Shown piece after piece: positions 2,904 to 57,689 of a DNA stretch of 64,000 nucleotides. Origin of the DNA: Escherichia phage CAU_ECP01; the sequence record PQ572755.1, one strand, 5' to 3'. Within the stretch, counting starts at the first letter, position 1. Every line of letters begins with the position of its first letter. The translations under genes and the position numbers were made by a program. Under the pieces are notes generated by a model. It ran no database searches, had not been told where the DNA came from, and saw only the letters and a program-made list of their open reading frames with translations.

Positions 2904-5159
2904 ATGCAAGTAACTAAGAGCAGTGGGGTATCCCAAAATTTTGATGCACAGAAAATTATTCAAGTATTAACTTGGCAATGTGAAGGAACACAAATTGACC
3001 CATATGAATTGTACGAAGAAATTAAGACCCATCTTGTCGACGGGATGAGCACCAAAGATATCCAGAAGATTTGTATTAAAGTTGCAGCTAACTCGATTTC
3101 TGTCGAAGAACCTGATTATCAGTATGTCGCCGCCAAAGGGCTAATGTTTGCACTTCGTAAAGATGTATATGGGCAGTTTGAACCGCCTGCTTTTATCGAC
3201 CATATTTCTTATTGTGTTAATGAAGGCAAATACGACCCTGAGCTGTTGTCTCAATATTCAGCAGAAGAAATCATTTATCTCGATTCACAGATTAAACATG
3301 AACGAGACTTTGACCTGACTTATGCTGGTGCTATGCAGCTTAAAGAAAAATATCTAGTTAAAGATAAAACAACTGGGAAGATTTATGAAACTCCACAGTT
3401 TGCTATCATGGCTATTGGCATGGCCTTACATCAAGACGAAACTCATGACCGTTTGAAACATATTATTCGTTTTTATGATGCCGTTTCTACTCATCAAGTT
3501 TCATTGCCAACCCCAATTATGGCAGGTGCTCGTACTCCAACTCGCCAGTTCTCTAGTTGTGTAGTTATTGAAGCCGGTGATTCGTTAAAATCTATTAACA
3601 AAACTTCAGCATCAATTATTGAATATATTTCTAAACGAGCTGGTATCGGTATCAACGTTGGTATGCTTCGTGCAGAAGGTTCTAAGATCGGTATGGGTGA
3701 AGTTCGACATACAGGTGTTATTCCATTCTGGAAACATTTCCAAACTGCAGTAAAATCTTGTTCTCAAGGTGGTATTCGTGGTGGTGCTGCTACAGCGTAT
3801 TATCCGATGTGGCACTTAGAAGTAGAGAACCTATTAGTTCTGAAAAATAACAAAGGCGTGGATGAAAACCGTATTAGACATATGGACTACGGAATTCAGA
3901 TTAATGACCTTATGATGGAACGCCTTGGTAAAAATGATTATATTACTTTATTTAGCCCTCACGAAATGTCAGGCGAACTATACTACTCGTTCTTTGAAGA
4001 TCAAGATAAATTCCGTGAGCTTTATGAGAAAGCTGAAAAAGACCCAACAATCAGAAAGAAAAGAATCAAAGCACTAGAACTCTTTGAATTGTTCATGACT
4101 GAACGCTCTGGTACTGCTCGAATTTATCCACAATTCGTTGATAACACGAACAACTACACTCCATTTATTCGTGAAAAAGCTCCAATTCGACAGAGTAACT
4201 TATGTTGTGAAATCGCTATTCCAACTAATGATGTGAATGGTCCTGATGCTGAAATTGGTTTATGTACGTTATCTGCTTTTGTATTAGATAAATTTGATTG
4301 GCAAGACCAAGATAAAATTAATGAACTGGCCGAAGTACAAGTACGTGCACTTGATAACTTGTTAGACTATCAAGATTATCCGGTTCCAGAAGCTTTAAAA
4401 GCTAAAAAGCGTCGAAATCTCGGTGTTGGTGTGACGAACTATGCCGCATGGTTAGCTTCTAACTTTGCTTCATATGAAGACGCTAACGATTTGACTCATG
4501 AATTGTTTGAGAGATTGCAATATGGCCTTATCAAAGCTTCAATCAAACTCGCCAAAGAAAAAGGACCTTGTGAGTATTATTCAGACACTAAATGGTCTAG
4601 AGGCGAATTACCTATCGACTGGTACAATAAAAAGATTGACCAAATCACAGCCCCGAACTACGTCTGTGACTGGGAAGAACTTCGAGCTGAACTCAAAGAA
4701 CATGGAATTCGTAACAGCACACTTAGTGCTCTCATGCCATGCGAATCAAGCAGTCAAGTCTCAAATAGCACAAACGGTATAGAGCCACCTCGTGGACCTG
4801 TAAGTATTAAAGAATCTAAAGAAGGCAACTTCCGACAGGTTGTTCCTAATATTGAACACAACATGGGTCTTTATGACTATGCGTGGAAACTCGCTAAGAA
4901 AGGTAATAAGCCTTATCTGACACAAGTTGTTATCATGTTAAAATGGGTGTGCCAATCTGCTTCTGCTAATACATACTACGACCCTTCAGTCTTTGAGAAA
5001 GGCAAAGTGCCAATGTCTGTAATGCTTGATGACTTGCTTTACTTCTGGTACTTTGGTGGTAAGAACCTTTACTATCATAACACTCGAGATGGTTCTGGTA
5101 CAGATGACTATGAGTTAGAAACGCCTAAAGCTGAAGATTGCTCCGCTTGTAAGCTTTAA
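2904..5159 (+). CDS. nrdA: aerobic ribonucleotide reductase large subunit
   Basis: 751 aa; class Ia RNR alpha with ATP-cone N-terminus and C-terminal CxxC tail (CSACKL); T4 NrdA-like. Confidence 0.95.
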   Translation: MQVTKSSGVSQNFDAQKIIQVLTWQCEGTQIDPYELYEEIKTHLVDGMSTKDIQKICIKVAANSISVEEPDYQYVAAKGLMFALRKDVYGQFEPPAFIDHISYCVNEGKYDPELLSQYSAEEIIYLDSQIKHERDFDLTYAGAMQLKEKYLVKDKTTGKIYETPQFAIMAIGMALHQDETHDRLKHIIRFYDAVSTHQVSLPTPIMAGARTPTRQFSSCVVIEAGDSLKSINKTSASIIEYISKRAGIGINVGMLRAEGSKIGMGEVRHTGVIPFWKHFQTAVKSCSQGGIRGGAATAYYPMWHLEVENLLVLKNNKGVDENRIRHMDYGIQINDLMMERLGKNDYITLFSPHEMSGELYYSFFEDQDKFRELYEKAEKDPTIRKKRIKALELFELFMTERSGTARIYPQFVDNTNNYTPFIREKAPIRQSNLCCEIAIPTNDVNGPDAEIGLCTLSAFVLDKFDWQDQDKINELAEVQVRALDNLLDYQDYPVPEALKAKKRRNLGVGVTNYAAWLASNFASYEDANDLTHELFERLQYGLIKASIKLAKEKGPCEYYSDTKWSRGELPIDWYNKKIDQITAPNYVCDWEELRAELKEHGIRNSTLSALMPCESSSQVSNSTNGIEPPRGPVSIKESKEGNFRQVVPNIEHNMGLYDYAWKLAKKGNKPYLTQVVIMLKWVCQSASANTYYDPSVFEKGKVPMSVMLDDLLYFWYFGGKNLYYHNTRDGSGTDDYELETPKAEDCSACKL

Positions 5160-5209: not shown

Positions 5210-6388
5210 ATGAGTACAGTTTTTAATACCCAAAAAGTTGATGTTTTGAATGAACCAATGTTCTTTGGTTCCGGTCTTGGCCTTGCGCGTTACGATATTC
5301 AACGCCATAAAGTTTTTGAAGAGCTTATTGAAAAGCAATTGTCGTTTTTTTGGCGCCCTGAAGAGGTAAACTTGATGTTGGACTCTGCGCAGTTCAATAA
5401 GCTTCCACAGTTCCAACAGAACATCTTTACGAACAACCTTAAGTATCAATCATTATTGGATTCTATCCAAGGCAGGGCACCATCTGCGGTACTTATGGCA
5501 TTGCTTTCCGACCCTTCATTAGATACATGGGTTGCTACATGGACATTCAGTGAAACCATTCACTCTCGTTCATATACTCATATCATGCGAAATCTTTATA
5601 CTGATCCATCGAAGGTATTTGATGAGATTGTATTAGATGAAGCAATTATGAAACGTGCGGAATCAATCGGCAAATATTATGATGATGTTCTAGTTAAAAC
5701 ACGTGAATGGGAAAATGCTAAAGAAATTTTTAAATGTTTTTCCGAAAATGAATATGATTTGGATGCATATTCAAATAGTCTTATGCATGTGGAAGAATGT
5801 AAACGTGCATTAATGAAATCTCTTTATCTCTGTTTACATGTTATCAACGCCTTAGAAGCTATTCGTTTTTACGTATCATTTGCATGTACTTTCAACTTCC
5901 ATAAGAACATGGAAATCATGGAAGGTAATGCAAAGATTATGAAGTTTATCGCTCGTGACGAACAACTCCACCTTAAAGGCACTCAGTACATTATTCGACA
6001 GCTCCAACTTGGTGTTGATGGGGATGAATGGGTTCAAATTGCTAAAGAGTGTGAGCAAGAAGCAGTAGATATCTTTATGGAAGTAAATAGTCAAGAGAAG
6101 GAATGGGCTGCACACCTCTTTAAAGATGGTACATGTCCAGGTATCAATACGCAGAGTATGTGTGCTTTTGTTGATTACTTGACTGTGTCTCGTATGAAAC
6201 AGTGCGGTTTGCCATGCCCAATCACTGATGCTCCGACCAAGCATCCGTATCCTTGGATTCGTGAATATCTGAACTCAGATTTAGTTCAAGCAGCTCCTCA
6301 GGAAGTTGAAATCAGTTCTTATCTTGTCGCACAAATTGATAATGATGTAGACCAAAATGTAATCAATTCATACAAAAAATATTTCTAA
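5210..6388 (+). CDS. nrdB: ribonucleotide reductase small subunit, uninterrupted (no intron)
   Basis: 392 aa; diiron/tyrosyl-radical R2 family; continuous ORF at T4-like length. Confidence 0.95.
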   Translation: MSTVFNTQKVDVLNEPMFFGSGLGLARYDIQRHKVFEELIEKQLSFFWRPEEVNLMLDSAQFNKLPQFQQNIFTNNLKYQSLLDSIQGRAPSAVLMALLSDPSLDTWVATWTFSETIHSRSYTHIMRNLYTDPSKVFDEIVLDEAIMKRAESIGKYYDDVLVKTREWENAKEIFKCFSENEYDLDAYSNSLMHVEECKRALMKSLYLCLHVINALEAIRFYVSFACTFNFHKNMEIMEGNAKIMKFIARDEQLHLKGTQYIIRQLQLGVDGDEWVQIAKECEQEAVDIFMEVNSQEKEWAAHLFKDGTCPGINTQSMCAFVDYLTVSRMKQCGLPCPITDAPTKHPYPWIREYLNSDLVQAAPQEVEISSYLVAQIDNDVDQNVINSYKKYF

Positions 6389-6392
6389 GGAC

Positions 6393-6406
6393 GGGACTTC
6401 GGTCCC
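6393..6406 (+). other. UUCG-tetraloop stem-loop (GGGAC-UUCG-GUCCC) after nrdB, no U-tract
   Basis: Perfect 5-bp GC stem with UUCG loop 5 nt after nrdB stop. Confidence 0.5.
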
Positions 6407-6414
6407 ACTTTATT

Positions 6415-6825
6415 ATGAAAGATATTGCCGCCGAATATTCCTTTATTAAATATACAGAATTGGAGCTATTAGAAGATGCAACAATTAAAACAGTTGATGT
6501 CCCTAATAAGAAAAATGTCATATACGCTATTGCTATAGATGACGAACTTGTGTATATTGGTAAAACCAAGAATTTAAAGAAACGCATTAACTATTATCGA
6601 ACAGCCATAAATCGAAAAGACCAGACTTCAGATTCAAGAAAATCACTTATGATTTTGGATGCCTTAATGCAAGGCAAAAAGGTTGAATTCTGGGCCCGCC
6701 AATGTTTTGACCTTTCAGTCACCAACGAACTTGGTTCAATGACCATCGCAACAATGGACCTTGAAGAACCGCTTTTTATCAAAAAGTTCAACCCGCCTTG
6801 GAATATCCAACATAAGAAAAAGTAG
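6415..6825 (+). CDS. denA: endonuclease II (GIY-YIG nuclease)
   Basis: 136 aa as in T4 DenA; GIY-YIG-like motif VIYAIAIDDELVYIGKTKNLKKRINYY; position after nrdB as in T4. Confidence 0.8.
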   Translation: MKDIAAEYSFIKYTELELLEDATIKTVDVPNKKNVIYAIAIDDELVYIGKTKNLKKRINYYRTAINRKDQTSDSRKSLMILDALMQGKKVEFWARQCFDLSVTNELGSMTIATMDLEEPLFIKKFNPPWNIQHKKK

Positions 6826-6871: not shown

Positions 6872-8005
<1,134 letters not shown>

Positions 8006-9471: not shown

Positions 9472-9687
9472 ATGAAAACATTACTAGAGAATTACATCAA
9501 ACGGTCTGATGAGTATATTGATATCTGCCGTGGAATGTCACTTGGCAATTATGACAAAGATGCAGCAAAGGCACTAGATGAAGCAGGTAAAGCTCTTCGT
9601 AAAGCTGCTAAAGAAAAAGGGTTGGATTTGCAACAACTCAAAAGTCATATGATTAAATTTATTTCTTCAAACGTTAGAAGTACGTAA
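9472..9687 (+). CDS. hypothetical protein
   Basis: 71-aa ORF with GAGGAAA SD. Confidence 0.4.
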   Translation: MKTLLENYIKRSDEYIDICRGMSLGNYDKDAAKALDEAGKALRKAAKEKGLDLQQLKSHMIKFISSNVRST

Positions 9688-14933: not shown

Positions 14934-14938
14934 TTTTA

Positions 14939-14960
14939 GGGAGACTTCGGTCTCCCTTTT
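14939..14960 (+). terminator. intrinsic terminator, GGGAGAC-UUCG-GUCUCCC plus U-tract
   Basis: 7-bp GC stem, UUCG tetraloop, TTTT at 14957-14960. Confidence 0.8.
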
Positions 14961-14992: not shown

Positions 14993-15021
14993 GTTTACTC
15001 TCCTGTAGGATGTGTTACTAT
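14993..15021 (+). promoter_or_regulatory. T4-type early promoter
   Basis: GTTTAC 14993-14998, 17-bp spacer, TACTAT 15016-15021. Confidence 0.6.
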
Positions 15022-15872: not shown

Positions 15873-15879
15873 TTTAACT

Positions 15880-15895
15880 GGGAGCTTCGGCTCCC
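15880..15895 (+). other. UUCG-tetraloop stem-loop (GGGAGC-UUCG-GCUCCC), no U-tract
   Basis: 6-bp stem with UUCG loop just upstream of the SD of the next gene. Confidence 0.45.
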
Positions 15896-15907
15896 ACTGA
15901 GGAAATT

Positions 15908-20017: not shown

Positions 20018-20205
20018 TGAAAGCTTATTTAGAAACAGTTATTGTAGCTAAGAAGGATGGTGGAGATGTTTCCACCTCTTGCTCTCAGATTATATTAGAT
20101 TTTCCTAATAACGATTCCTATCATATTTTTATGGACAATTTTGATAAGTACGAAAAAGGCCCTAATTTTGAAGTTTATCGTACTTTGCTCCCGATTGTGG
20201 ATTAA
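20017..20205 (+). CDS. hypothetical protein
   Basis: 62-aa ORF from ATG overlapping ligase stop (TAATG); terminator follows. Confidence 0.4.
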   Translation: MKAYLETVIVAKKDGGDVSTSCSQIILDFPNNDSYHIFMDNFDKYEKGPNFEVYRTLLPIVD

Positions 20206-20224
20206 GAGCCTTCGGGCTCTTTTT
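20205..20224 (+). terminator. intrinsic terminator, AGAGCC-UUCG-GGCUCU plus U-tract
   Basis: 6-bp stem, UUCG loop, TTTT 20221-20224. Confidence 0.8.
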
Positions 20225-22700: not shown

Positions 22701-22709
22701 ACCCCTAAA

Positions 22710-22733
22710 GGGAGACAACGTCTCCCTTTTTTT
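22710..22733. terminator. terminator between convergent genes (GGGAGA-CAACG-UCUCCC plus T7)
   Basis: Hairpin 22710-22726 followed by TTTTTTT; lies between the plus-strand ORF and gene 54. Confidence 0.7.
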
Positions 22734-24814: not shown

Positions 24815-26587
24815 TTAATTAACACCGGTGGCATGGAAAATTCCAGGAGCCGTTGTACTTGTTACAGGGGTCATATTCTGGACTACGGTATTCTTTTTGA
24901 CGACATTATTTGTGTTACTAATCGCCGCTACCGGTTGCTGTTGTTTAGATTCAGAAGCACGTCCTTTCTCTATTGACTGAACTTGTTTTGCTTCTGGAGA
25001 TTTAGTCGAAGATTCAGGCTTAACTGTTGTCTGAGCCTTTTTGGCTTCAGCCATTTTATTATTTAGCTTTTCAAATCTAGCATCTATTTCCTTTTTAACA
25101 ACAGGAGTTTTATTAAGTTCAGGGTCTTTAATAAGTTTACTTAAATCAGCATAAGACTTCTCGACGTTTTTAGCATTTTCCGGATTAGTCATATCGATTT
25201 TATCGATATAATCCTCAAATCTAACCAGTGCAGCACGAGTTTCATTCGCTTTTATATACGCCTCTTTACGTTCCTCTTCAGGTAACTCTTTTAATTTTGC
25301 TGATTCCGCAGCGCGCTCATCACTTGTACTAAACTCTTCTTTATTGTCGTTACCACGAACCCAGTTAGTAACGAATGTTTTGCCGCGTTGTAACATATCA
25401 AGACCTTTAGAAACGGTTCCTAATTCCCCGTCGTCACGCTTCATTTGATATTTAGCGACTTTCTCTTGGTCTTCTTTCTTTAATTTGTTCCCAGTAGTTT
25501 CTTGGAATCCTTCTAAAGCACGTCCTTCTATTTCGTCTGCGGTATCACCAAAACCTATAGCACGCAATATAGACGCGGAGAGTTTAGCCATTCCTAATTG
25601 AATTAGTTCACCTAAGTTCATTAATGCTGTTCCTACACCTTTGACAATAGCAACGGTTAAACCACCCCAGTCTCCGGCTTCCCACAATTGTTTTATCGAG
25701 TCAATAGAAGTGAATATATCGCTTAAGAATTTACCCCACTCTTTAGCTTCATCGGAGAATTTAGTAAAGTTTTCATCAAATAAATCCCAGGCAGAAGTGA
25801 ACTTGTCAGTCCAATATTTGAAATGGACTATCAATAAATCAATACCGATAACAATACCAAGAATAAGTGCGGCCATTTTTGCTGCTTCAATAGCAGCCGT
25901 TATAGTGTATTTGAAAAGCATTCCAGCAATTCTGTCTGAAATTGATATTGATTTATTAAACCCGGTTTGAACTGTTTTGGTGAGCATTGCAATTTTATCG
26001 CTCAATTTAAAGCTAATTCCGCCTTTAGAATCGGAAGTAGAATTAGCACTTTCTTGAACCGGGGCTGGGAAGAAATCTTCGTCTGGCTTATTATCAATCT
26101 TTTCAGGTGTAGGTAATGCTTTAAACAACTCATCAGAAGTTTCGTTCTCAACCACTTTAACAGGTATTGCGTTCTCAATTACTTCAAGAGAGGTGCCTCC
26201 TGTATTTTGAATAGCGGTAGATGTTTGTAATTTTTGCTCTAATAATGTAGCTAATCGGTCTAACTTAGAGTTTATTGCATTAGAAACTTCGTTTATACTT
26301 TTAGTGACTTCAGTTTGTTTTTCAATAACTTCTGCGATAAGCTCTGTGCCTTCAGCAGTATTATCTGTCGAATTCTTTAAGTCTCCAATTGATTCAATAA
26401 TTCCATTGCCTTTATCTTCTACACTTTGCGATGTGAGTTCAGACGCGGCTTGGACATCGTCTAGTTTTGATGAAATATCATTCAATGCTTCTAATGAATC
26501 GGTAGCTGCTGTTGCAGCTACTTTTTGTGGTTTATTATCGGCAATGACCTTATTTCTACGCATGGATTTCATTTCTTCAGGTTTCAT
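24815..26587 (-). CDS. 29: tail-length tape-measure / baseplate hub protein gp29
   Basis: 590 aa (T4 gp29 590 aa); synteny. Confidence 0.8.
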   Translation of the reverse strand: MKPEEMKSMRRNKVIADNKPQKVAATAATDSLEALNDISSKLDDVQAASELTSQSVEDKGNGIIESIGDLKNSTDNTAEGTELIAEVIEKQTEVTKSINEVSNAINSKLDRLATLLEQKLQTSTAIQNTGGTSLEVIENAIPVKVVENETSDELFKALPTPEKIDNKPDEDFFPAPVQESANSTSDSKGGISFKLSDKIAMLTKTVQTGFNKSISISDRIAGMLFKYTITAAIEAAKMAALILGIVIGIDLLIVHFKYWTDKFTSAWDLFDENFTKFSDEAKEWGKFLSDIFTSIDSIKQLWEAGDWGGLTVAIVKGVGTALMNLGELIQLGMAKLSASILRAIGFGDTADEIEGRALEGFQETTGNKLKKEDQEKVAKYQMKRDDGELGTVSKGLDMLQRGKTFVTNWVRGNDNKEEFSTSDERAAESAKLKELPEEERKEAYIKANETRAALVRFEDYIDKIDMTNPENAKNVEKSYADLSKLIKDPELNKTPVVKKEIDARFEKLNNKMAEAKKAQTTVKPESSTKSPEAKQVQSIEKGRASESKQQQPVAAISNTNNVVKKNTVVQNMTPVTSTTAPGIFHATGVN

Positions 26588-27117: not shown

Positions 27118-28237
27118 TTTTAACCTTAACTGGGTTAACAGGTTCTAACACCATTGAGTTGGTAAACATGTACAGATGAGTTTGTGAGTTGTTATTTGAT
27201 AACTCATGAATAACTTCATCCACGTAAAATTCGGATTTGAATTGGTTCTTTTGGTCAACAAATATAATTTTAGTAGCAGGCGTTATGTTAAAATTACCTG
27301 TAGTAGTGCATTTAGCATAACCGTCGTATTGAGCCATTGTCTGAAGACGACTTGCTTCTTCAAATCCGTTACGATAGGTCATTTCGGAATATCCGCCGGA
27401 TCTTGACACAAGAATAGCATTATCACCGTCGCCAGTAACAATAACTGGAATAGATGTATCTAAAAATGAATGGGCGAATATTGTGGCGTTTTTAATAGGG
27501 TCTCTTGTAAATTGGTTGGCTTTAGTCATCCAGGTAAAATCCCATACTAATGGATACTCAAGCTCTTGAATATACTGACCTACAGTATTTGGCTCACCTA
27601 CAATCATCTTAATGCCTTCTTGACCAATAAGAGTATCGTAGTCAATCATGTTTACGCCTAAAATATCTTGCCATACGAATACGAACTTATCACTCGCTGT
27701 AGCAAGTCCTAATTCTCTGACATATGCCAAATAATCATCAAATGTGCTTGTCCAAGGAATATCAGGAACATAAGCATTAATAGTGTTTATTGGCGGAGTA
27801 ATTAACGTACGGTCTTTATATATGACACCTAACATTTCACGTATAGATTCGCCTGCGTCCGGGAAGAACGGACGCCCAAATTTAAGGTTCTCTATAGAAT
27901 GTATTGTTCCAAGCTCAATTGCAATAATATTGTCACCTTTTGAGTCCACAGACACAGAATAATGTCTACATCCGTAAATTCGAGTTCTAACTTGGAGAGG
28001 TGTGTTTGAATTTGAAACAGAGATTTGGACTATCTGCCTACCATCCATTTTAGTGTGGATGTTTTTAGTGTCATAAAATTGAAGAATCCCTTCATTTCTT
28101 CCATATAGCGAATCTCGCATGGTTAAAGTTGTTATTGTTGCAGCGAGTTCAACGTATCTATTTTCTTGCCAAGCCGAATAATCTTGATATAATTTAACGC
28201 TTAAGTTAGGATATCCTGGACGTTGGAATACTGTCAT
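27065..28237 (-). CDS. 27: baseplate hub subunit gp27
   Basis: 390 aa (T4 gp27 391 aa); synteny. Confidence 0.8.
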
Positions 28238-31268: not shown

Positions 31269-31279
31269 TTTTATCTCCT

Positions 31280-31295
31280 AAGGGCCGAAGCCCTT
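31280..31295 (-). other. UUCG-tetraloop stem-loop (AAGGGC-UUCG-GCCCUU) between uvsW and uvsW.1
   Basis: Overlaps the uvsW stop codon and sits directly 5-prime of the uvsW.1 SD; no U-tract. Confidence 0.45.
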
Positions 31296-32808
31296 ATAAA
31301 TTAATTGTTTTCATTACATAGTTAAATTTCTCATCAGCGTAACGCTGGATACGATCAATACCGTGTTTTAACAAGTAATTAAGATGAGTATACTTCTTTT
31401 TAGTATTTAATGATTTAGGTTTTACACCTGCGTCATCGATGAGATCCCAAACTGTAGCAACAGCTTTAGAACCATGCTTACGAAGCACACGACCTACTGT
31501 TTGAAGTACGATAATTTTTGATTTAACACCATGGGCAAAAATAACATGATGAAGATTCTTGACTGAAATACCGGTAGAGAATACTCCATATGATGCGACA
31601 ATAATAATGCCTTTACCATTTTCTGCCATGACTTTAAGCGCGTTACGTGTTTCAGTATCAACTTCACCTGATACGTAATAAACTTTTTCGTATCCAAGCT
31701 CTTTAATAGCTTCAAATATTTCTTTACCGTGTGTAACATGTTTAAACATTACAAAGGCGTTCTCGTCTTTCTTGGCTAATTTGACTGAAAGTTGAGCAAT
31801 CCACTTTGTACGACGTTTTAGTCCGGTAATAATTTTAACTTCTTCTTGGTATGTTTTACCTTTTAATTTGGTGGCGAATTCGTCTGGATAACGAAGGAAA
31901 ATACTATTAATCTTAAGCTCAGTTACCTGTCCGTCTTCCATTAATTTAGACGTGCTAACAGGACGGAAGATTTCGCCGAACATACCTACGTACTGCATTA
32001 CATTGGCTTTTCCGTCTCTTAATGAGCCAGATAAACCGAATTTAAACATGCAATTATTTAATCCTGAGATGATTGAAGAAATACTTTTGCCTGTTGCTAA
32101 GTGGCATTCATCGTTCATCATCATACCGAACTGAGAGAACCATTCTTTAGGCTGCTTAACTACCGTTTGCCATGTGCCAACAATAATTGGAGCGTCGTTT
32201 TTAGCTCTGTCTGCTTTATCAGCACCACCGCCAATTTTCTTAATCATCGAATGACTAAACAAGCGATAATCAACAAAATCATTAGCCATCTGGGTTGTCA
32301 ATGCTGTTGTAGGGACGATAATGAGAATTTTACCTTCATAGTTCTCTAGATAATACCGAGATAAAAGTGCTTGGATTAGTGATTTACCTGCTGATGTCGG
32401 AAGGTTTAAAATTCGACGACGATTAACTAGTCCTTCATATACTGCATCTTTTTGATACCAATGTGGTTCGATTTTGGCGTTGCCCGAATAAATTTCTTGT
32501 TTAGAAAGCCACGCGTCAAAATCTTCCCTGGTAAGGTCTTCAGTCTCAAAGATTTTAGGGTCAATCCATATAGAATAACTCATATTGTTACAGAACTTTT
32601 TTATTTGTCCTACAAGACCATATGGTAACAAACGATTGTAATCTAAAAGTCGAATTCTACCATCCCATTGCCCATAGCGATATTTTGGGTTAAATTTATA
32701 CCCGTCGGCTTCAAAGCTAAAAAAGTCACGAAGTTCGTAAAACGTACTTTCGTCGCATTCAATGCGAACGTGACTAAAATCATAAAAATGTACTTTAATG
32801 TCAGTCAT
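31294..32808 (-). CDS. uvsW: DNA/RNA helicase UvsW (SF2)
   Basis: 504 aa; Walker A GKS, DExH-like MMMNDECH; T4 UvsW-like. Confidence 0.9.
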   Translation of the reverse strand: MTDIKVHFYDFSHVRIECDESTFYELRDFFSFEADGYKFNPKYRYGQWDGRIRLLDYNRLLPYGLVGQIKKFCNNMSYSIWIDPKIFETEDLTREDFDAWLSKQEIYSGNAKIEPHWYQKDAVYEGLVNRRRILNLPTSAGKSLIQALLSRYYLENYEGKILIIVPTTALTTQMANDFVDYRLFSHSMIKKIGGGADKADRAKNDAPIIVGTWQTVVKQPKEWFSQFGMMMNDECHLATGKSISSIISGLNNCMFKFGLSGSLRDGKANVMQYVGMFGEIFRPVSTSKLMEDGQVTELKINSIFLRYPDEFATKLKGKTYQEEVKIITGLKRRTKWIAQLSVKLAKKDENAFVMFKHVTHGKEIFEAIKELGYEKVYYVSGEVDTETRNALKVMAENGKGIIIVASYGVFSTGISVKNLHHVIFAHGVKSKIIVLQTVGRVLRKHGSKAVATVWDLIDDAGVKPKSLNTKKKYTHLNYLLKHGIDRIQRYADEKFNYVMKTINL

Positions 32809-33536: not shown

Positions 33537-34952
33537 ATGGCATTCACTGTCACGTTATCTCCTTTAACTCCTACAGGGGTTATTGGAGGTTCACAAACAT
33601 TCACTGCTACACCTGCAGGTGAAAGTCCAGATGGTACTATTACATACGTCTGGACTGTAGATGATATAGCACAGGAGTCTACGGCTGCTACAATGGATTA
33701 TACTCTTGCTTCTCCAGCAGGAACAAAAAAAATTAAAGTGGTTGCAACTAATACACTTTCCGCAGGAGATCCGGAAATAGCTGAAGCGTCAACAACTATC
33801 ACTGTTAATAAGAAAGAAAATAATTCTACCGTCGCTGTTACTCCGGCTTCTCCGGCTGCAGTAGAAATTGGAACAGCAACAACATTCACTGCTAATGTAA
33901 GTAATCAACCTAGTGGTGCTGCTATTGCTTATACATGGAAAGTTGACGGGGTCGCTGCTGATGGTCAAAAGCAATCAACCTTTGAATATACACCAACATC
34001 TGAAGGAACTAAGTCTATAACTTGCTCCGTCACAGTAACTGCAACTGATTACGTTGATAAAACAGTAGAATCATCAGCGGTTTCTTTGACTGTAAATAAA
34101 AAGGCTAATTCTTCAACACTAAAAATTACGCCTGAGTCTCCGACTACGGTCTTTGGTGTTCCTATTACTTTAACTGCAAATGTCTCTAGTGCACCCTCAG
34201 GTGCTACTACATCATTCCAGTGGTCAATGGATGACAGTAATATTCCGGATGCAACTTCTGCTACATATAAATTCACTCCAACCGAGGTCGGAAGTAAAAC
34301 TCTTAAATGCACTGTATCTGTTTCTGCAACAAATTATGTTACAAAAGAAATTTCAGCAGAAGCAACAGTAGTAACTAATAATGCGACATTTAATAGTGCC
34401 ACCATTTCTTTATCTCCGCCATCAGTTAATACTACTGTTGGTGGAACTGCAACTTTAACAGCATCTGTTACTGGTGCTCCAGGTGATACTAATATTGTGT
34501 ATTCTTGGAAGAAAGACAACGTAGCAGAAAGTAATTCTACCAATACTTACAGTATTGATACCTCCTCAGCTGGTACTCATACAATTAAAGTTGAAGCAGT
34601 ATTAACTAAAGATAATTATACTCCAAAGACAATTAGTTCAACCGCTGAAGTTGTTATTGCTGAACGGACTCCAATTGAACCAGAAGGTGAATTACCTTAT
34701 GTTCATCCTCTTCCACACCGTACTTCAGCTTACATTTGGTGTGGTTGGTGGGTTATGGATGAAATCCAAAAAATGACTGAAGAAGGTAAAGATTGGAAAA
34801 TCGACGATCCGGGTAGTAAGTACTACTTGCATCGTTATACGCTTCAGAAGATGATGAAAGACTATCCAGAAGTTGATGTTCAAGAATCACGTAATGGATA
34901 CATCATTCATAAAACTGCGCTAGAAACTGGTATCATTTATACATATCCATAA
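33537..34952 (+). CDS. hoc: outer capsid decoration protein Hoc with four tandem Ig-like domains
   Basis: 471 aa; four ~90-aa repeats (TFTA...Y.W.VD...TNYV/TDYV) plus conserved capsid-binding C-terminus. Confidence 0.8.
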   Translation: MAFTVTLSPLTPTGVIGGSQTFTATPAGESPDGTITYVWTVDDIAQESTAATMDYTLASPAGTKKIKVVATNTLSAGDPEIAEASTTITVNKKENNSTVAVTPASPAAVEIGTATTFTANVSNQPSGAAIAYTWKVDGVAADGQKQSTFEYTPTSEGTKSITCSVTVTATDYVDKTVESSAVSLTVNKKANSSTLKITPESPTTVFGVPITLTANVSSAPSGATTSFQWSMDDSNIPDATSATYKFTPTEVGSKTLKCTVSVSATNYVTKEISAEATVVTNNATFNSATISLSPPSVNTTVGGTATLTASVTGAPGDTNIVYSWKKDNVAESNSTNTYSIDTSSAGTHTIKVEAVLTKDNYTPKTISSTAEVVIAERTPIEPEGELPYVHPLPHRTSAYIWCGWWVMDEIQKMTEEGKDWKIDDPGSKYYLHRYTLQKMMKDYPEVDVQESRNGYIIHKTALETGIIYTYP

Positions 34953-34957
34953 TCGTA

Positions 34958-34980
34958 AGGGGCTTCGGCCCCTTTCTTCG
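34958..34980 (+). terminator. intrinsic terminator (AAGGGGC-UUCG-GCCCCUU plus U-rich tail)
   Basis: Hairpin 34958-34975 followed by TCTTCGTTTT. Confidence 0.7.
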
Positions 34981-35046
34981 TTTTAAAGCATATAAACCAC
35001 AACTTGAGATTGATGTATATAATGGCACAAACCAAATAATACTGGA

Positions 35047-35247
35047 TTGATTATGAGAGCTGAAGTTGAAGTTTATACATTACATGAGGCGGGATTTTCA
35101 TTCGTAGAAATTGCTCAAAAAATCGGTTTACAACCTAAAGAAGTTGGATTACTATGGACTAAAGCCGAGACAGCTCGGTCAAAGTTTAAAGCAAAAGAAA
35201 AAGTTGTATACCGTAAACGTCTGATTAATAAAAAGGTGAAGAAATGA
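35047..35247 (+). CDS. small helix-turn-helix-like protein
   Basis: 66 aa; HTH-like segment GFSFVEIAQKIGLQPKEVG; basic C-terminus. Confidence 0.4.
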   Translation: MIMRAEVEVYTLHEAGFSFVEIAQKIGLQPKEVGLLWTKAETARSKFKAKEKVVYRKRLINKKVKK

Positions 35248-35495
35248 GTTTTGCACAGGAATTAAGAGAAAGGGCTCTGGCCATTAAAGCCAATTTGTTG
35301 AGTGATTTTATTACTAACTTCTCTGTGATGGCAGAGAAAGCCGCTGACAAAGGCCAGACACAATTCACGTACTATCCATCAAAGAATGATTTAACTATCA
35401 CCGAGCAAGTCGGGCAGTGGTTACGTGATAATGGCTTTCAGTACAAAATTAATCACGACCAACGTGATGGTCATTGGATAGAAATCAAGTTCTAA
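35244..35495 (+). CDS. hypothetical protein
   Basis: 83-aa ORF overlapping the previous stop. Confidence 0.4.
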   Translation: MSFAQELRERALAIKANLLSDFITNFSVMAEKAADKGQTQFTYYPSKNDLTITEQVGQWLRDNGFQYKINHDQRDGHWIEIKF

Positions 35496-35497
35496 TA

Positions 35498-35523
35498 TGC
35501 TTTACATTTTTTGATGGTATAAT
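35498..35523 (+). promoter_or_regulatory. MotA-dependent middle promoter
   Basis: MotA box TGCTTTA 35498-35504; extended -10 TGGTATAAT 35515-35523; shares TAATATGCTTTAC with the gene 31 middle promoter. Confidence 0.55.
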
Positions 35524-35614
35524 GAATCTAGGTTCTATCCATTCAAATTAAACATCGGGTCGGAGATAGAGTCTCTGCTAATTATTTTGATATTATTATT
35601 TATAATGGTGATTT

Positions 35615-36622
35615 ATGTTTAAGAAATACAGCAGTCTTGAAAACCACTACAACTCTAAGTTTATTGAAAAACTCTACACTAATGGTTTGACTACTGGTGT
35701 TTGGGTAGCACGTGAGAAAATCCATGGGACCAACTTCTCGTTAATAATTGAACGTGACAACGTCACATGCGCCAAGCGCACAGGCCCTATTCTTCCAGCA
35801 GAAGATTTTTATGGTTATGAAATCGTACTCAAGAAGTATGATAAGGCTATTAAAGGTGTTCAAGAAGTCATGGACAGTATTTCAACTTCAGTGCCGGTGA
35901 CATATCAAGTCTTTGGTGAATTCGCTGGTGGTGGAATTCAGAAAGGTGTTGACTACGGTGAAAAAGATTTCTATGTATTCGATATCATCATAAACACGGA
36001 AAGCGGTGATACTTATTACATGAGTGATTACGAAATGCAAGATTTCTGTAATACGTTTGGTTTTAAAATGGCACCAATGCTTGGACGTGGAACATTTGAT
36101 GCTCTTATCACGATTCAAAACGACCTTGATTCCGTCTTAGCCGCTTATAACGCTACGGCATCGGAAGACCTTGTAGAAGCAAATAATTGCGTATTTGATG
36201 CTAATGTTATTGGTGATAATACCGCAGAAGGTTATGTTCTGAAGCCTTGTTTCCCTAAATGGCTGCCAAACGGTACTCGTGTAGCGATTAAGTGCAAGAA
36301 CTCTAAATTCAGTGAAAAGAAAAAGTCTGATAAGCCTATTAAAACTCAGGTTCCATTAACCGAAATTGACAAAAACTTGCTTGATGTTCTAGCTTGTTAT
36401 GTTACATTAAATCGTGTTAACAATGTGATTTCTAAGATTGGGACAGTAACTCCGAAAGATTTTGGCAAAGTGATGGGATTGACTGTTCAAGATATTCTGG
36501 AAGAAACTTCTCGTGAAGGCATTGTATTAACATCATCTGATAATCCGAATCTTGTTAAGAAAGAATTAGTCCGAATGGTGCAAGATGTTCTGCGTCCTGC
36601 ATGGATTGAATTAGTATCATAA
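35615..36622 (+). CDS. rnlB: RNA ligase 2
   Basis: 335 aa; [21 protein letters not shown]...[18 protein letters not shown] matches T4 Rnl2 closely. Confidence 0.9.
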
Positions 36623-36624
36623 CG

Positions 36625-36656
36625 AAAAAAGGGGACCTTTACGGTCCCCTTTTTTT
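36625..36656. terminator. bidirectional intrinsic terminator (A6-GGGGACC-uuuac-GGUCCCC-T7)
   Basis: 7-bp GC stem flanked by A-run and T-run, between convergent rnlB and gene 24. Confidence 0.8.
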
Positions 36657-37939
36657 CATTCATCTATAATAATTTTAGGCAATTTAACACCAAGTAAAAC
36701 AGACAAGTCTGAACGTCCTGCCATTTTATCCATGTCCCCGCCATCAATTATTCTCGCTTCTTTTTCGTCTTTTGCTACTGTGTAAGGATTTGCTGATAAA
36801 GCGTATCTAACCAATAAACCAATAGACGGTTGCAAGCTTTCTGGATCAACTACAACTTTAAATGCACCAACATGTTCAGGGTCATCTAAGTCGAGACCTT
36901 CTGTATACGGGGCATAGAAAATTGATCCAACAATTTCTTTTTCACCGATATTTTCTACTACGCCAACGATCACATAATCTAATGGACTGTTAGTATCGCA
37001 ATAAAGCGGTAAACCATTAGCTAAGAACCCGTAAGCATTTTGTGAAAGATACTTATCATCTTCTGGTTTATGTTTTAACCAACCTGAAGCAGCAAGAATA
37101 GCAGCTGCACGAGCTGAAGCTACACAAAACGTCGCAGTATAAGTTGACTCTTTTTGAATGTGTGATACCATTTCACACACCATTCGATATAACGAACGAC
37201 CTGCTTCTGGAGCGGATGCATAGCTCAAGTCAATAAATCCGGTGTCAGTAATTCCAGTAACTTTATAACGTTTCGATACCGTAATTAAAGACTGAAGAAT
37301 ATCTTTATTAATTTCATCAGCCATTTCAGTAGCAAGCAAATCTTCTAAGAAGTTAGGGGCATCAAATCCATTCGCTTCCAAATCTTGCGCTAATTCAACC
37401 GTGAGGCCGGTTTTAAGTTTACGAGATTTGACTGAAGTTTGCCATTTATTAATTTGGAATCTTGCATCAGAAATTTCGCTACCGGAGCTTTCAAATTTGC
37501 TTGTCACCGCTGCATCTGAAAATAACCGTACCTTTAAATGAACAACTGCAATCTGAAGAGCTAATTCTAGATCACTTTCTTGAATATCTGCAAATGGTGT
37601 ATCTTCTAGCACTTTATAGACGATATTATTATATTTGAAAAAATCGCCTTTATTTAGTGTGACTTTTGATTCTTCTGTGAGCTCGGTAATTTTTTCTCGG
37701 TCTACATATCCAGCTTCACCTGCATAAGTAGCACCAGTTTTAAACGTTAATTCGTTGTCTGGGTTAAGATATTTAATACCATAAAAAGCAGCAACAGGTT
37801 GATTAGTTCTTTGTGTTGCTACAATGTCAGAATATATTAATTTAGTCGTAGCGCGAGTCAAAGCAACGAGATTTGGGCGACCGATTGAGTTGCTAGTAGA
37901 CGTTGTAGATTCACGCAATAATTTTTGGATTTTACTCAT
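36656..37939 (-). CDS. 24: head vertex protein gp24
   Basis: 427 aa; near-identical to T4 gp24 from memory. Confidence 0.9.
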   Translation of the reverse strand: MSKIQKLLRESTTSTSNSIGRPNLVALTRATTKLIYSDIVATQRTNQPVAAFYGIKYLNPDNELTFKTGATYAGEAGYVDREKITELTEESKVTLNKGDFFKYNNIVYKVLEDTPFADIQESDLELALQIAVVHLKVRLFSDAAVTSKFESSGSEISDARFQINKWQTSVKSRKLKTGLTVELAQDLEANGFDAPNFLEDLLATEMADEINKDILQSLITVSKRYKVTGITDTGFIDLSYASAPEAGRSLYRMVCEMVSHIQKESTYTATFCVASARAAAILAASGWLKHKPEDDKYLSQNAYGFLANGLPLYCDTNSPLDYVIVGVVENIGEKEIVGSIFYAPYTEGLDLDDPEHVGAFKVVVDPESLQPSIGLLVRYALSANPYTVAKDEKEARIIDGGDMDKMAGRSDLSVLLGVKLPKIIIDE

Positions 37940-37958
37940 TGCATTTTTTCCTTATGTG

Positions 37959-37966
37959 ATATAGAT
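37959..37966 (-). promoter_or_regulatory. late promoter (TATAAATA) for gene 24
   Basis: TATTTATA on the plus strand 20 nt upstream of the gene 24 start. Confidence 0.6.
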
Positions 37967-37980
37967 TATTTATAAAGATT

Positions 37981-38010
37981 GTTTACAACGTATTTGGTAT
38001 GTGATACTAT
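37981..38010 (+). promoter_or_regulatory. T4-type early promoter
   Basis: GTTTAC 37981-37986, 18-bp spacer, TACTAT 38005-38010. Confidence 0.6.
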
Positions 38011-38040
38011 AGACTTATCAACTACAGAGGAGTAAACAAA

Positions 38041-38310
38041 ATGACTAAAGCACGTTTCTTACGAGATACTTTAAAAGTTCTGGAAGCTGAAGCAGTTAAG
38101 TTAGTAGAAAAATATGGTGCAAAAGTTAATGGTAATGCCTTCAACAAAGTATGGATGAAAGTTGATTCTGAAGCTCGAGCTAAAGGTTATTGGGCCACTG
38201 ATAAACTTGCATCATTCAAAAACAAAAACGGTTCTCCGGCATATGTCCAAGAAGGTATGCCTAATTGGCAAAATATTTTGAAAACTTACATCGAAATTGC
38301 ACAGAAATAA
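38041..38310 (+). CDS. hypothetical protein, opposite-strand gene between 24 and 23
   Basis: 89-aa ORF with GAGGAG SD, own early promoter and a shared terminator. Confidence 0.45.
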   Translation: MTKARFLRDTLKVLEAEAVKLVEKYGAKVNGNAFNKVWMKVDSEARAKGYWATDKLASFKNKNGSPAYVQEGMPNWQNILKTYIEIAQK

Positions 38311-38320
38311 AACCAAAAAT

Positions 38321-38338
38321 GGGAGACCGAAGTCTCCC
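38321..38338. terminator. terminator hairpin (GGGAGAC-UUCG-GUCUCCC on the minus strand), main terminator of gene 23
   Basis: Identical 18-nt hairpin to 14939-14956 and 57668-57685; U-rich tract follows on the minus strand. Confidence 0.7.
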
Positions 38339-38362
38339 AAAATAAGATTTAATCAATTAAGA

Positions 38363-39931
38363 TTAGATGCCTTTTACATATACACGGCGGAAGTAAGCGT
38401 TCTTACCAAGGCTGTTCAGGATAGACGGCATACCGGACTGGATGCGAGCACCTGGAGCCTGCAGGGAACTTTCAGCAAATGGGTTAACACCGATACCGTA
38501 ACGAGTTTTAAAGCCCATTACCGGCTGGAAGTTCTTAGGATCGGAACCACGCAGTGGGGTAAGTGCAACGTAAGGAGCATAGTAAATACCTGCATCCATT
38601 TCGTTAGCGCCTTTGTAACCAACGGTGAAGTAATCCTGTTTAGCATACTGGTCGATGTATACGCGGTATTTACCACCAAGTACACCGGCAAATACAGACT
38701 TAGTAGTGTCAGTATTAAAACCAGAAGCCAGACCCTGTGCAGCGTAAGAAATACCAGTATCAACTGAAGCCAGTACGTTAACTACGTTACGGGAAGCGAT
38801 AATGAAGTTACCTTCACCACGACCGGTTTGACGAGCAATTTCAACTGCTTCTTTATCAATCTGGAACAACAGAGATTTAAAGCTTTCACCGGCCCAACGA
38901 GCACCACGGATGTCAATCGGGTCCTGGAAGTCAAATACACCAGCTTTAGAACCAGGAGTCAGGGTCATACCAGATTTACCGACCTGTGCCGAGTAGTTAA
39001 TCCAATCAACAACTTCACGGTTGATTTCTAGCATAATTTCTGTAGCCAGAATACCGCTCAGTTCAGCATCAGCATCCATACCGTGTACTGCACGGAGGTC
39101 TTGTGCTAATTCGATAGAGTAAGCAGCTTTCAGCTGGCGAGATTTAGCTTCGATAACTTGTTTATCGATACGGAAGCCCATTTCATTCCATGGGTTATCG
39201 GTAGAACCGTTGAAACCTTCCTGGAGTTCAGCGATAGAAGTAGCCATACCTTCAGCGATTTCTACCAGTGCACCAGCTTCCATTTGTTTCTTAACTTCTG
39301 CATCTAATTTAGCTGCATCAGTTGCACCAGAATCAAGTGTTACGACAGCAGAAGCTTGCAGATATACAGTACCAGTTTCTTGGAAGAAGTGAGTATAGAT
39401 ATCACCTACAACAGTAGTAGTGTCAGCAGCCAGAGCTGGGAATTTCTTAGCAGCACCCTGACCAGAGAACATCGCGTCTGGGGCATACATCGGATGGAAA
39501 GCTTCTTTAGCGCCAGCAGCGATAGGGTCTTTACCATATACTGCACGGAGAGCAAATACCTGACCGGTCGGGCTGTTCATAGGCTGAACACCACAAATAT
39601 CAAAAGCGATCAGATTAGGAATAGCACGACGAACCATACCCATAACTGCCGGCCCAATCTGGGTTACTGCACCAGAGGTTTGACCTGCTGCGATGTTCTG
39701 AGCATTATAACCGTGGTCACCACCAATTTCAGCTTCGGTCAAGAAAGAACCAAATGCCTGAGCGATTTTCTCGTCTTTATATTCAGGGGATACTTCGAAA
39801 TCTTTTTCCTGGTTTTCGAAGATTTTAGCGATAATAGCCTGCTTGCTATTAGCGATTTCCGGCAGGCCTTCACCTTCCAGCAGTTCTTTCCATTTGTCTA
39901 CGAGCTGAGCTTTAGTTTTGATAATAGTCAT
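38363..39931 (-). CDS. 23: major capsid protein gp23
   Basis: 522 aa; near-identical to T4 gp23 across the whole length from memory. Confidence 0.95.
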   Translation of the reverse strand: MTIIKTKAQLVDKWKELLEGEGLPEIANSKQAIIAKIFENQEKDFEVSPEYKDEKIAQAFGSFLTEAEIGGDHGYNAQNIAAGQTSGAVTQIGPAVMGMVRRAIPNLIAFDICGVQPMNSPTGQVFALRAVYGKDPIAAGAKEAFHPMYAPDAMFSGQGAAKKFPALAADTTTVVGDIYTHFFQETGTVYLQASAVVTLDSGATDAAKLDAEVKKQMEAGALVEIAEGMATSIAELQEGFNGSTDNPWNEMGFRIDKQVIEAKSRQLKAAYSIELAQDLRAVHGMDADAELSGILATEIMLEINREVVDWINYSAQVGKSGMTLTPGSKAGVFDFQDPIDIRGARWAGESFKSLLFQIDKEAVEIARQTGRGEGNFIIASRNVVNVLASVDTGISYAAQGLASGFNTDTTKSVFAGVLGGKYRVYIDQYAKQDYFTVGYKGANEMDAGIYYAPYVALTPLRGSDPKNFQPVMGFKTRYGIGVNPFAESSLQAPGARIQSGMPSILNSLGKNAYFRRVYVKGI

Positions 39932-39948
39932 TTGTGTTAACCTTTAAA

Positions 39949-40761: not shown

Positions 40762-40791
40762 TTTAGTGTCCTGTGGTTTAGATTACATTAT

Positions 40792-40799
40792 TATTTATA
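40792..40799 (-). promoter_or_regulatory. late promoter (TATAAATA) for gene 22
   Basis: TATTTATA on the plus strand about 30 nt upstream of gene 22 start. Confidence 0.55.
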
Positions 40800-41436: not shown

Positions 41437-41861
41437 TAGCTTAATCCTAATGCTTTACGACGTTTAAGAGCTTTTTTACGCTTACGCATGCCTTTAACTT
41501 GGCCTGAAGGGTTAGCTTTTTTAGCTTTAACGACCTTACGAGCGATTTGTCTACGTTTTGCTTTAGAAAGACCGGTTGTTTGGAACGCGTTACGTTCACG
41601 AGTTTTACGGTCTTTAGTGCGGGTGACTTCACCACGAGAAGAAACATGTTTAACGATAAACTCATTTAACTGCTCTTCATTAATAATGGAAGCCATTGCA
41701 ACAGCTAAATCCGTTTCAGTTTCAAGCATGTTCTCGATAATAGTATTTATATCGTCAATATCGAGAGCAGAAGACAATGCATCGATTCGGCCCTGTGCTT
41801 CAGGAATAAGTGCTTCGACATTTTCGAGTACCAATTCATAAGATTCAGGGATAAGATACAT
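41436..41861 (-). CDS. 68: prohead core protein gp68
   Basis: 141 aa as in T4; basic C-terminus. Confidence 0.6.
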
Positions 41862-43668: not shown

Positions 43669-43696
43669 TGTATTCTCCGAATGGGAATTATAGTTA

Positions 43697-51259: not shown

Positions 51260-51271
51260 ATAAATCCTTTA

Positions 51272-51287
51272 GGGCCCGAAGGCCCTT
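51272..51287 (-). other. UUCG-tetraloop stem-loop (AGGGCC-UUCG-GGCCCU) after wac
   Basis: Between wac stop and the gene 13 SD; no U-tract. Confidence 0.45.
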
Positions 51288-57652: not shown

Positions 57653-57660
57653 TATTTATA
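57653..57660 (-). promoter_or_regulatory. late promoter (TATAAATA) for gene 9
   Basis: TATTTATA on the plus strand about 26 nt upstream of gene 9 start. Confidence 0.6.
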
Positions 57661-57667
57661 CACGAAA

Positions 57668-57685
57668 GGGAGACCGAAGTCTCCC
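57668..57685 (-). terminator. UUCG hairpin (GGGAGAC-UUCG-GUCUCCC) after gene 8
   Basis: Third identical copy of the 18-nt hairpin; followed on the minus strand by UUUCG and the gene 9 late promoter. Confidence 0.5.
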
Positions 57686-57689
57686 TAAA

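Follow-up and report, generated by a model that had tools for sequence, protein, structure and literature searches.

Three identical copies of an 18-nt inverted repeat lie far apart in the genome of Escherichia phage CAU_ECP01 (sequence record PQ572755.1), and they raise the question of whether their identity reflects copying from one site to another, a site that is recognised by some protein or RNase, or the repeated use of one stem-loop design at the ends of genes. The stretch of DNA analysed, called the window below, is 64,000 nt long, and the 18-mer, GGGAGACTTCGGTCTCCC, reads as the RNA hairpin GGGAGAC-UUCG-GUCUCCC.

A 4-kb piece round the region of the first copy matched 781 phage records, headed by Escherichia phages LF82-4 (98.5% identity) and phiEC1 and by Mosigvirus vB_EcoM_SA79RD (96.8%), and judged by its sequence the window is that of an RB69-like T4-type phage. 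Its gene order runs from an early part (frd/td/nrdAB, cd, 31, rIII, 30.x ORFs, ligase and alt) to a late part with genes for baseplate, head, tail and neck. SA79RD, an RB69-like Mosigvirus with annotated genes, promoters and terminators, was used as the reference for mapping sites; it is collinear with the window in reverse orientation, with identities of 97.5% (window positions 2902-32284), 95% (34677-53065) and 79% (53402-64000). Across the whole SA79RD genome UUCG caps 24 stems of 5 bp or more, and the 18-mer itself occurs exactly at four places, which follow genes 23, 30.9, 32 (where the copy is the annotated gene 32 terminator) and 35; the stem is also present once with an AAC loop. A similarity search with a 32-nt query (hairpin and flanks) found 4-5 similar places in each RB69-like genome and one imperfect place in T4, and no exact 18-mer from T4 was among its matches.

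The whole window was scanned for exact matches to the 18-mer, and three were found (14939-14956 on the plus strand; 38321-38338 and 57668-57685 on the minus strand), as the first-pass annotation had stated, compared to none in 100 dinucleotide shuffles. Each of the three stems gains one further A-U or U-A pair to give 8 bp, which takes the predicted folding energy from -12.0 to -14.1 kcal/mol. The near-copy that had been noted at 22710 is also real, having the same GGGAGAC/GTCTCCC stem with an AAC triloop (22707-22729; -12.4 kcal/mol). Its earlier description as a CAACG loop on a 6-bp stem is equivalent to an AAC triloop on a 7-bp stem. The other UUCG hairpins that had been listed all proved to have perfect stems, at 6393, 15879, 20204 and 34957 (plus strand) and at 31279 and 51271 (minus strand), so that C-TTCG-G on perfect stems of 5-8 bp occurs at the three copies and six further sites. 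The perfect-stem scan for TTCG also gave 18209, where the stem is almost wholly A-T, and 30642, which is inside a coding sequence according to the SA79RD annotation, and both of these are probably due to chance. Altogether TTCG loops on perfect stems of at least 5 bp were found at 11 sites (shuffles: mean 0.64, maximum 3), while none of the other loops among all 256 tetraloops exceeded four sites. The element at 36625, grouped with these hairpins by the first-pass annotation, stands as a candidate terminator with a U-tract and not as a UUCG hairpin, its loop being UUUAC. No match to any Rfam 15 covariance model was obtained at the gathering score across the whole window. The features and their contexts are collected in Table 1.

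Table 1. UUCG hairpins and associated elements in the window, with the annotation of the corresponding sites in SA79RD (SA79RD positions in the last column).
Feature	Position	Strand	Sequence	Context in the window	Site in SA79RD
Copy 1 hairpin	14938..14960	+	AGGGAGAC-UUCG-GUCUCCCU then UUUGUG	Candidate terminator after 30.9-like small ORF; early region downstream of rIII	Rho-independent terminator by WebGeSTer and TransTermHP (3438-3467)
T4 early-type promoter-like sequence	14993..15021	+	GTTTAC-N17-TACTAT	37 nt 3' of copy 1	No promoter annotated between terminator 3438-3467 and next CDS (3564)
Copy 2 hairpin	38320..38339	-	UGGGAGAC-UUCG-GUCUCCCA then UUUUUGG	Candidate terminator 24 nt past stop of gene 23 (major capsid protein); faces small convergent ORF	Terminators annotated (26230-26269)
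Copy 3 hairpin	57667..57686	-	AGGGAGAC-UUCG-GUCUCCCU then UUCGUG (weak U-tract)	4 nt past stop of gene 8 (baseplate wedge)	Annotated terminator, GGGAGCC-UUCG-GGCUCCC
Late promoter of gene 9	57653..57660	-	TATAAATA	7 nt past copy 3	Same hairpin-then-late-promoter arrangement annotated before gene 9 (6883-6890)
Same-stem copy	22707..22729	both	AAAGGGAGAC-AAC-GUCUCCCUUU; A-run and T-run arms	Candidate bidirectional terminator between convergent alt.-3 (+) and gene 54 (-)	Terminators annotated on both strands (9542-9582)
UUCG hairpin	6393..6406	+	GGGAC-UUCG-GUCCC	26-nt nrdB-denA spacer; 5 nt past nrdB stop, 8 nt before denA AUG	No rho-independent terminator annotated
UUCG hairpin	15879..15896	+	UGGGAGC-UUCG-GCUCCCA, no U-tract, then cuGAGGaaauuAUG	Between 30.7-like gene and next gene	Terminator annotated (4379-4406)
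UUCG hairpin	20204..20221	+	AAGAGCC-UUCG-GGCUCUU then UUUGG	End of small ORF after DNA ligase gene, upstream of alt	No rho-independent terminator annotated
UUCG hairpin	31279..31296	-	UAAGGGC-UUCG-GCCCUUA, no U-tract, then GGAGauaaaaAUG	After uvsW, before uvsW.1	Terminator annotated (990-1015)
UUCG hairpin	34957..34974	+	AAGGGGC-UUCG-GCCCCUU then UCUUCGUUUU	5 nt past hoc stop	
UUCG hairpin	51271..51286	-	AGGGCC-UUCG-GGCCCU, no U-tract, then aAAGGAuuuauAUG	After wac (fibritin), before gene 13	
Non-UUCG hairpin	36625..36655	both	A6-GGGGACC-(UUUAC/GUAAA)-GGUCCCC-U6	Candidate bidirectional terminator between rnlB (+) and gene 24 (-)	Terminators annotated on both strands (27919-27958)

The nine G-rich UUCG hairpins share their position and their strand. 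UUCG is on the sense strand at 9/9, and each is 0-24 nt from the stop codon upstream, following genes 30.9, 23, 8, nrdB, 30.7, the small ORF before alt, uvsW, hoc and wac. The terminator position claimed earlier for the hairpins with U-tracts agrees with the annotation of the corresponding sites in SA79RD, where WebGeSTer and/or TransTermHP call rho-independent terminators at seven of the nine UUCG sites (all but 6393 and 20204) and also at 22710 and 36625. Several of the annotated SA79RD terminators overlap annotated early promoters. A census that we made of credible terminators at ORF ends in the window found that six of nine carry UUCG (this includes the hairpin at 14938, which a 60-aa ORF cut-off had missed) and that one more has the GGGAGAC stem. 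This census replaced a promoter and terminator scan of the window which showed no excess of terminators (13 against 11.8 in shuffles) and which draws the U-tract into the stem, and hence misses 14939.

The layout of an intrinsic terminator, a G-C-rich stem with a U-run directly following it, is seen at 14939 (UUUUGUG), 38321 (AUUUUUGG), 20204 (UUUUGG) and 22710; it is weak at 34957, where the U-run is interrupted as it also is at 6393 (ACUUUAUU), and at 57668, which has UUUCGUG only. At 15879, 31279 and 51271 there is no U-run and the hairpins lie 2-5 nt upstream of a Shine-Dalgarno sequence and AUG. The first-pass annotation was broadly right on both points, having placed U-tracts at 14939, 20204 and 34957 (the last of them the interrupted run) and having described other hairpins as directly preceding a Shine-Dalgarno sequence. 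Because copy 3 is poor in U-tract and four UUCG hairpins are without one, termination cannot be the whole story, and the members with weak or no U-tract probably attenuate transcription or only stabilise RNA.

Comparison of orthologous sites indicates what is being kept. At the gene 8 site, the SA79RD stem (GGGAGCC) is one compensatory swap away from the GGGAGAC of the window. At the gene 23 site the exact 18-mer is present in five of the listed viral loci whose flanks are just 72-81% identical to those of the window, and it is kept where gp23 is 81-85% identical to that of the window but replaced where gp23 is 94-95% identical; the closest relative by gp23 among the matches listed (95%) has a GGGACC stem, and RB59, a T4-species phage, has GGGAACC-UUCG-GGUUCCC. 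Two further relatives carry the exact 18-mer in the interval between their wac-like and gene 13 homologues, which in the window is occupied by a different UUCG stem, and one viral locus shares the 30.9 site of copy 1 at 96% identity. On conservation among relatives, a point which the first-pass annotation had raised, the answer is thus a divided one: the 18-mer is retained at some sites and in some lineages and replaced elsewhere, including in the lineages closest by gp23.

The gene 23 site was followed further using an unbiased set of 75 loci with gp23 homologues, 69 of which were examined. Our own search found a tetraloop terminator after the gp23 homologue at 55 of these 69, and 28 of the 55 have a UUCG loop; GAAA, GCAA and UACG loops were also found. 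Stems at this position include GGGAGAC, GGGACC, GGGAGCC, GGGAACC, GGAGCC, GGGAC, GGGGAC and longer ones, with a T-run following. A loop-anchored alignment of 23 distinct hairpins (from which five sequences that MAFFT had shifted out of register were excluded) showed double changes at 8/8 base pairs, with 98.4% of cells paired compared to 55-60% when the partner was slid by one column; the figure of 98.4% is inflated, as the aligned sequences were chosen for having a hairpin, and the relevant point is that the stems differ. Such differing stems at orthologous sites are the signature of selection on structure: conservation here concerns the type of hairpin and where it is placed, and not its letters.

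The 18-mer was then sought in genomes at large. An exact-match scan of IMG/VR gave at least 120 matches, and about 120 loci were compared. These showed at least 103 distinct flank contexts among the matches listed, with a T-run directly after the 18-mer in its UUCG orientation in 80 of the 103 and an A-run before it alone in 7. Of the listed viral loci only eight share homology with the window round the hairpin: the gene 23 site accounts for five of them, the wac/gene 13 interval for two and the 30.9 site for one. A second exact scan, of one genome per bacterial or archaeal species (596 Gb, in which about 17 matches would be expected by chance), found at least 124 bacterial contexts from many phyla, 97 of the 124 listed having a T-run after the 18-mer and 2 having an A-run before it alone. 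These contexts indicate that the 18-mer has been arrived at many times independently as a terminator, and its recurrence in that role across many bacterial phyla means that T4 proteins cannot explain it.

It does not follow that this sequence is favoured everywhere. A viral scan for GGGNNNC-TTCG-GNNNCCC-TTTT, with the middle three stem positions free, recovered many stems, and AGA accounted for only 2 of 74 comparable stems. The 18-mer as a generic optimum was ruled out by this count, which shows that it is not a universal favourite. T4-like contigs make up 62 of the roughly 120 listed 18-mer loci compared to 32 of 117 loci of the general stem, and the frequency of the 18-mer in enterobacterial T4-like phages therefore needs a lineage-specific preference, shared ancestry or occasional conversion. 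Near the unrelated 18-mer loci, 13 other UUCG-stem hairpins were found in about 1 Mb, which is too few for stem frequencies. About 30 of the listed viral loci have the 18-mer directly after a capsid homologue 25-46% identical to that of the window, and we considered whether the 18-mer is specifically tied to gene 23. This was rejected, as a distant gp23 homologue also directly precedes about 20 of the 117 general-stem hairpins, among which the middle triplets vary widely, compared to about 30 of the 120 listed 18-mer loci.

The three 18-mers are classical T4 C(UUCG)G end-of-gene hairpins, a kind already known. CUUCGG hairpins were described from T4, where they are plentiful between genes (Tuerk et al. 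1988, PNAS 85:1364, as summarised in PMC8948821), and those of T4 are on the sense strand only (PMC7165471). The hairpins of the window have the same UUCG loop, C-G closing pair, short G-C-rich stem, intercistronic position, sense-strand orientation and abundance, which bears out the first-pass annotation in its reference to the T4 C(UUCG)G type, whose high stability is here a predicted one. We find no essential difference from the T4 hairpins; the window uses GGGAGAC at several sites, whereas T4 has GGGAACC after gene 23. They are also like the intrinsic terminators of E. coli in having, just past stop codons, a G-C-rich stem-loop with a direct U-run and, at 22710 and 36625, bidirectional elements with A-run and T-run arms, but they are unlike them in the weak or absent U-tracts at 57668, 15879, 31279, 51271 and 6393. 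As stable hairpins at the end of T4-type messages they further resemble the 3' stem-loops that act as exonuclease barriers and the stabilising hairpin of T4 gene 32 mRNA. The latter is an element of the 5' leader (Gorski et al. 1985, as summarised in PMC8948821), whereas the hairpins here are at 3' ends and an effect on half-life is presumed by analogy.

Hairpins with the position, strand bias, enrichment, structural covariation and independent recurrence described above are very probably RNA elements which protect 3' ends and which, depending on whether a U-run comes after them, either terminate or attenuate transcription or serve to separate cistrons; the roles in termination and stabilisation are suggested by what is known of intrinsic terminators and 3' stem-loops. 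The literature searched yielded neither a transcript-end map nor a Term-seq study for any T4-type phage. The transcript would fold into a G-rich stem of 7-8 bp under an extra-stable UUCG tetraloop. With a U-run (14939, 38321, 20204 and 22710, and more weakly 34957 and 57668) this would act as a Rho-independent terminator or attenuator for E. coli RNA polymerase, insulating one transcription unit from the promoter that follows it; copy 1 and the promoter-like sequence downstream of it may form such a terminator-then-promoter intergenic unit. Whether or not termination occurred, a hairpin at the 3' end would block 3'-to-5' exonucleases and so stabilise the upstream message. Those hairpins without a U-run and with a ribosome binding site next to them (15879, 31279, 51271 and 6393) are more likely to be barriers to decay or processing between cistrons, and may also fix the local structure round the next start site.

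That the three copies are identical is best explained by a narrow design of which one common form has been arrived at several times. GGGAGAC-UUCG-GUCUCCC would be one frequent form of this design, in which the stem has three G-C pairs at its foot, on the side of the U-run, a 5' arm rich in purines, and a C-G pair under the UUCG loop. Selection would reach this form repeatedly and independently, and individual sites would drift among neighbouring forms by compensatory swaps.

Copying between sites, which the first-pass annotation had suggested on account of the 18-nt identity, could have taken the form of short-patch gene conversion or recombination between terminators, or of the shuffling of terminator-promoter cassettes like the PeSLs (promoter-early stem-loops) of T4-type phages, which terminate transcription and mediate modular shuffling (PMC2839356, PMC4122927); the repeated stems would then double as short homologies for modular exchange. 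Exact GGGAGAC arms are indeed more numerous than expected, at 4 against 0.17-0.41 in SA79RD and 3 against 0.02-0.21 in the window, the expected values coming from a model with independent positions that was derived from the arms of the family itself and is crude, as it mixes stem lengths, and the several similar places in RB69-like genomes, compared to the single imperfect one in T4, point the same way. Yet at the gene 23 site of T4-like phages of enteric bacteria the 18-mer accounts for roughly one in four distinct sequence contexts, so that several copies per genome would be unremarkable. Copies 1 and 3 both have TAATTT(T)A before the hairpin and TTTyGTG after it, but such likeness nearby consists of a stop codon, an AT-rich spacer, a T-run or a late promoter, all of which are expected from function, and further out than about 12 nt the flanks of non-orthologous copies are no more alike than chance predicts (mostly about 4-6/18 matching at 13-30 nt from the hairpin).

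Crossovers inside stem-loops have been reported for PeSLs, and G-rich stems have been speculated to be recombination targets (PMC2839356); in the window the hairpins after hoc (34957) and wac (51271) lie exactly at steps in identity to SA79RD. These two steps are ordinary boundaries of variable genes, though, and there is no such step at any of the three 18-mer sites (0/3), while 18-20 bp is well under the homology patches of about 50 bp quoted for T4 recombination (PMC2839356). The hairpins as mosaic junctions in general were rejected, with steps only at the hoc and wac sites and none at the three copies. Copying is not needed to account for an 18-mer that also arises in hundreds of genomes unrelated to this one, and we regard copying as unlikely, any short-patch conversion among the copies being occasional.

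The likeness to PeSLs is itself limited. Both are repeated intergenic G-rich stem-loops, and copy 1 is followed by an early-type promoter-like sequence. PeSLs are composite motifs of about 100 bp that are conserved throughout and concentrated in hyperplastic regions beside ORFans (Arbiol et al. 2010, PMC2839356; Comeau et al. 2014, PMC4122927), whereas the identity between copies here extends over 18-20 nt. Copy 1 is in an early region of small ORFs which is collinear with SA79RD, and copies 2 and 3 are in the conserved late structural module after core genes 23 and 8, copy 3 being paired with a late promoter and copy 2 having no promoter nearby. The marking of indels in hyperplastic regions that characterises PeSLs is not seen at the three copies. 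The hairpins of the window fit the descriptions of T4 UUCG hairpins fully and those of PeSLs only loosely. Nor was a mobile short repeat of REP- or MITE-like type found, nothing being conserved beyond the stem-loop across the differing viral flank contexts.

The excess of identical stems in RB69-like genomes could instead come from active homogenisation, with terminators converting one another over short patches, or from selection by a lineage-specific factor that reads GGGAGAC; we think this improbable, and if it were true the hairpins would double as recombination or regulatory landmarks, as has been proposed for PeSL elements.

Very improbable, in our view, is sequence-specific recognition, by which GGGAGAC/GUCUCCC, containing the RegB motif GGAG in its 5' arm, would be a site at which a phage or host protein binds or cuts. 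The first-pass annotation had drawn a recognition element from the 18-nt identity, and exact identity at several sites per genome, retention of the 18-mer after gene 23 despite diverged flanks, and the greater share of T4-like contigs in the 18-mer sample than in the general-stem sample would all suit one. It is opposed by the recurrence of the 18-mer in unrelated flanks, including terminators in bacteria of many phyla that have no T4 proteins, by the swapping of stems at orthologous sites in T4 and in the lineages closest by gp23, and by the lack of any Rfam family match. RegB targets an accessible GGAG, usually in a Shine-Dalgarno sequence, together with a downstream S1-dependent element. 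The GGAG of the 18-mer is paired inside the stem, and T4 itself has intergenic UUCG stem-loops, terminators included, in which a buried GGAG is reported to resist RegB (PMC1702504).

A DNA-level element, a cruciform or single-strand hairpin serving replication, packaging or a nuclease and not acting as RNA, can hardly be right: the repeat is a perfect DNA palindrome save for its loop, and T4-type phages do encode structure-specific nucleases (endonuclease VII is annotated in SA79RD), but UUCG is on the sense strand at every G-rich site, the T-run follows the UUCG orientation in most of the listed viral and bacterial contexts, a cruciform has no reason to favour TTCG over CGAA on the coding strand, and the UUCG stability bonus belongs to RNA.

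Taken as end-of-gene RNA hairpins, these elements have a practical value for annotation, in that they mark transcription-unit boundaries and likely stable 3' ends in RB69-like phages, UUCG-capped hairpins being most of the credible terminators in the window. They also call for caution, as an exact 18-nt repeat at distant sites resembles copying or a recognition site; because one design has been arrived at independently in hundreds of genomes, a short structured repeat should first be compared with its orthologous sites and with unrelated genomes, and only then be credited with a special function. A G-rich UUCG hairpin behind the major capsid gene seems to be a feature of the T4 superfamily as a whole, even where capsid protein identity is as low as 25-45%, and this hairpin is a comparative sign of lasting selection on tight termination or message stabilisation after the most-expressed late gene.

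The window's terminator shared by rnlB and gene 24 is a perfect 13-bp palindrome (A6-GGGGACC / GGTCCCC-T6, with a 5-nt loop) and gives a hairpin followed by a U-run on either strand. The terminator of gene 23, which encodes the major capsid protein, faces a small convergent ORF. In the direction of this ORF the loop reads CGAA and AAAAUAAG comes after the stem, so inefficient termination of the small-ORF transcript is expected, although the annotation of SA79RD, an RB69-like Mosigvirus relative, places terminators on both strands at this site.

Features discussed, with window coordinates and strand
Feature	Position	Strand	Remark
nrdB-denA spacer with GGGAC-UUCG-GUCCC hairpin	6386-6417	+	spacer length 26 nt
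hoc divergence	about 33900-34950		identity to SA79RD falls to 0-60%
Bidirectional terminator, rnlB (+) / gene 24 (-)	36625-36655	both
Small ORF converging on gene 23 terminator	38032-38301	+
wac divergence	about 51290-52750		identity to SA79RD falls to 55-88%

The sole Shine-Dalgarno-like sequence in the nrdB-denA spacer, AAGGA, overlaps the nrdB stop codon and lies 23 nt upstream of the denA AUG with the hairpin between them, and folding of the hairpin would shrink this distance to about 9 nt. Split ribosome-binding sites have been described for T4 genes 38 and 25, which this arrangement resembles.

Identity to SA79RD falls within hoc and wac and is back at 94-98% immediately beyond the UUCG hairpins that end them, and therefore these mosaic junctions coincide with terminators. 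Genes 6-12 (53402-64000) have about 79% identity to SA79RD, compared to 95-97.5% in the remainder of the window, which points to a separate ancestry for this baseplate and short-tail-fibre block.

In SA79RD the gene for the single-stranded DNA-binding protein, gene 32, is followed by an annotated terminator (147417-147434) that is also an exact copy of the 18-mer hairpin GGGAGAC-UUCG-GUCUCCC. This site corresponds to just left of window position 1, and an additional copy probably lies just beyond that edge. Among the matches listed are contigs from Gallionellaceae, Nitrosomonadales and other beta-proteobacterial MAGs (L323, L340, L379, L382, L386 and L397), several of which carry two exact copies within 1-4 kb. 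The hairpin in this group is often lengthened to aaCAG-GGGAGAC-TTCG-GTCTCCC-CTGtttttt, as if the lineage had a repeated form of the same terminator for itself.

Directly 3' of the major capsid gene, GGGxxxC-UUCG-GxxxCCC with a T-run was found in many environmental T4-superfamily contigs among the IMG/VR matches listed (L006-L121 and L137-L240, on the 3' side of gp23 homologues). The stem middle is variable and the capsid proteins have only 25-49% identity to gp23 of the window. The use of a UUCG terminator to close the capsid transcript looks like a habit across the whole T4 superfamily.
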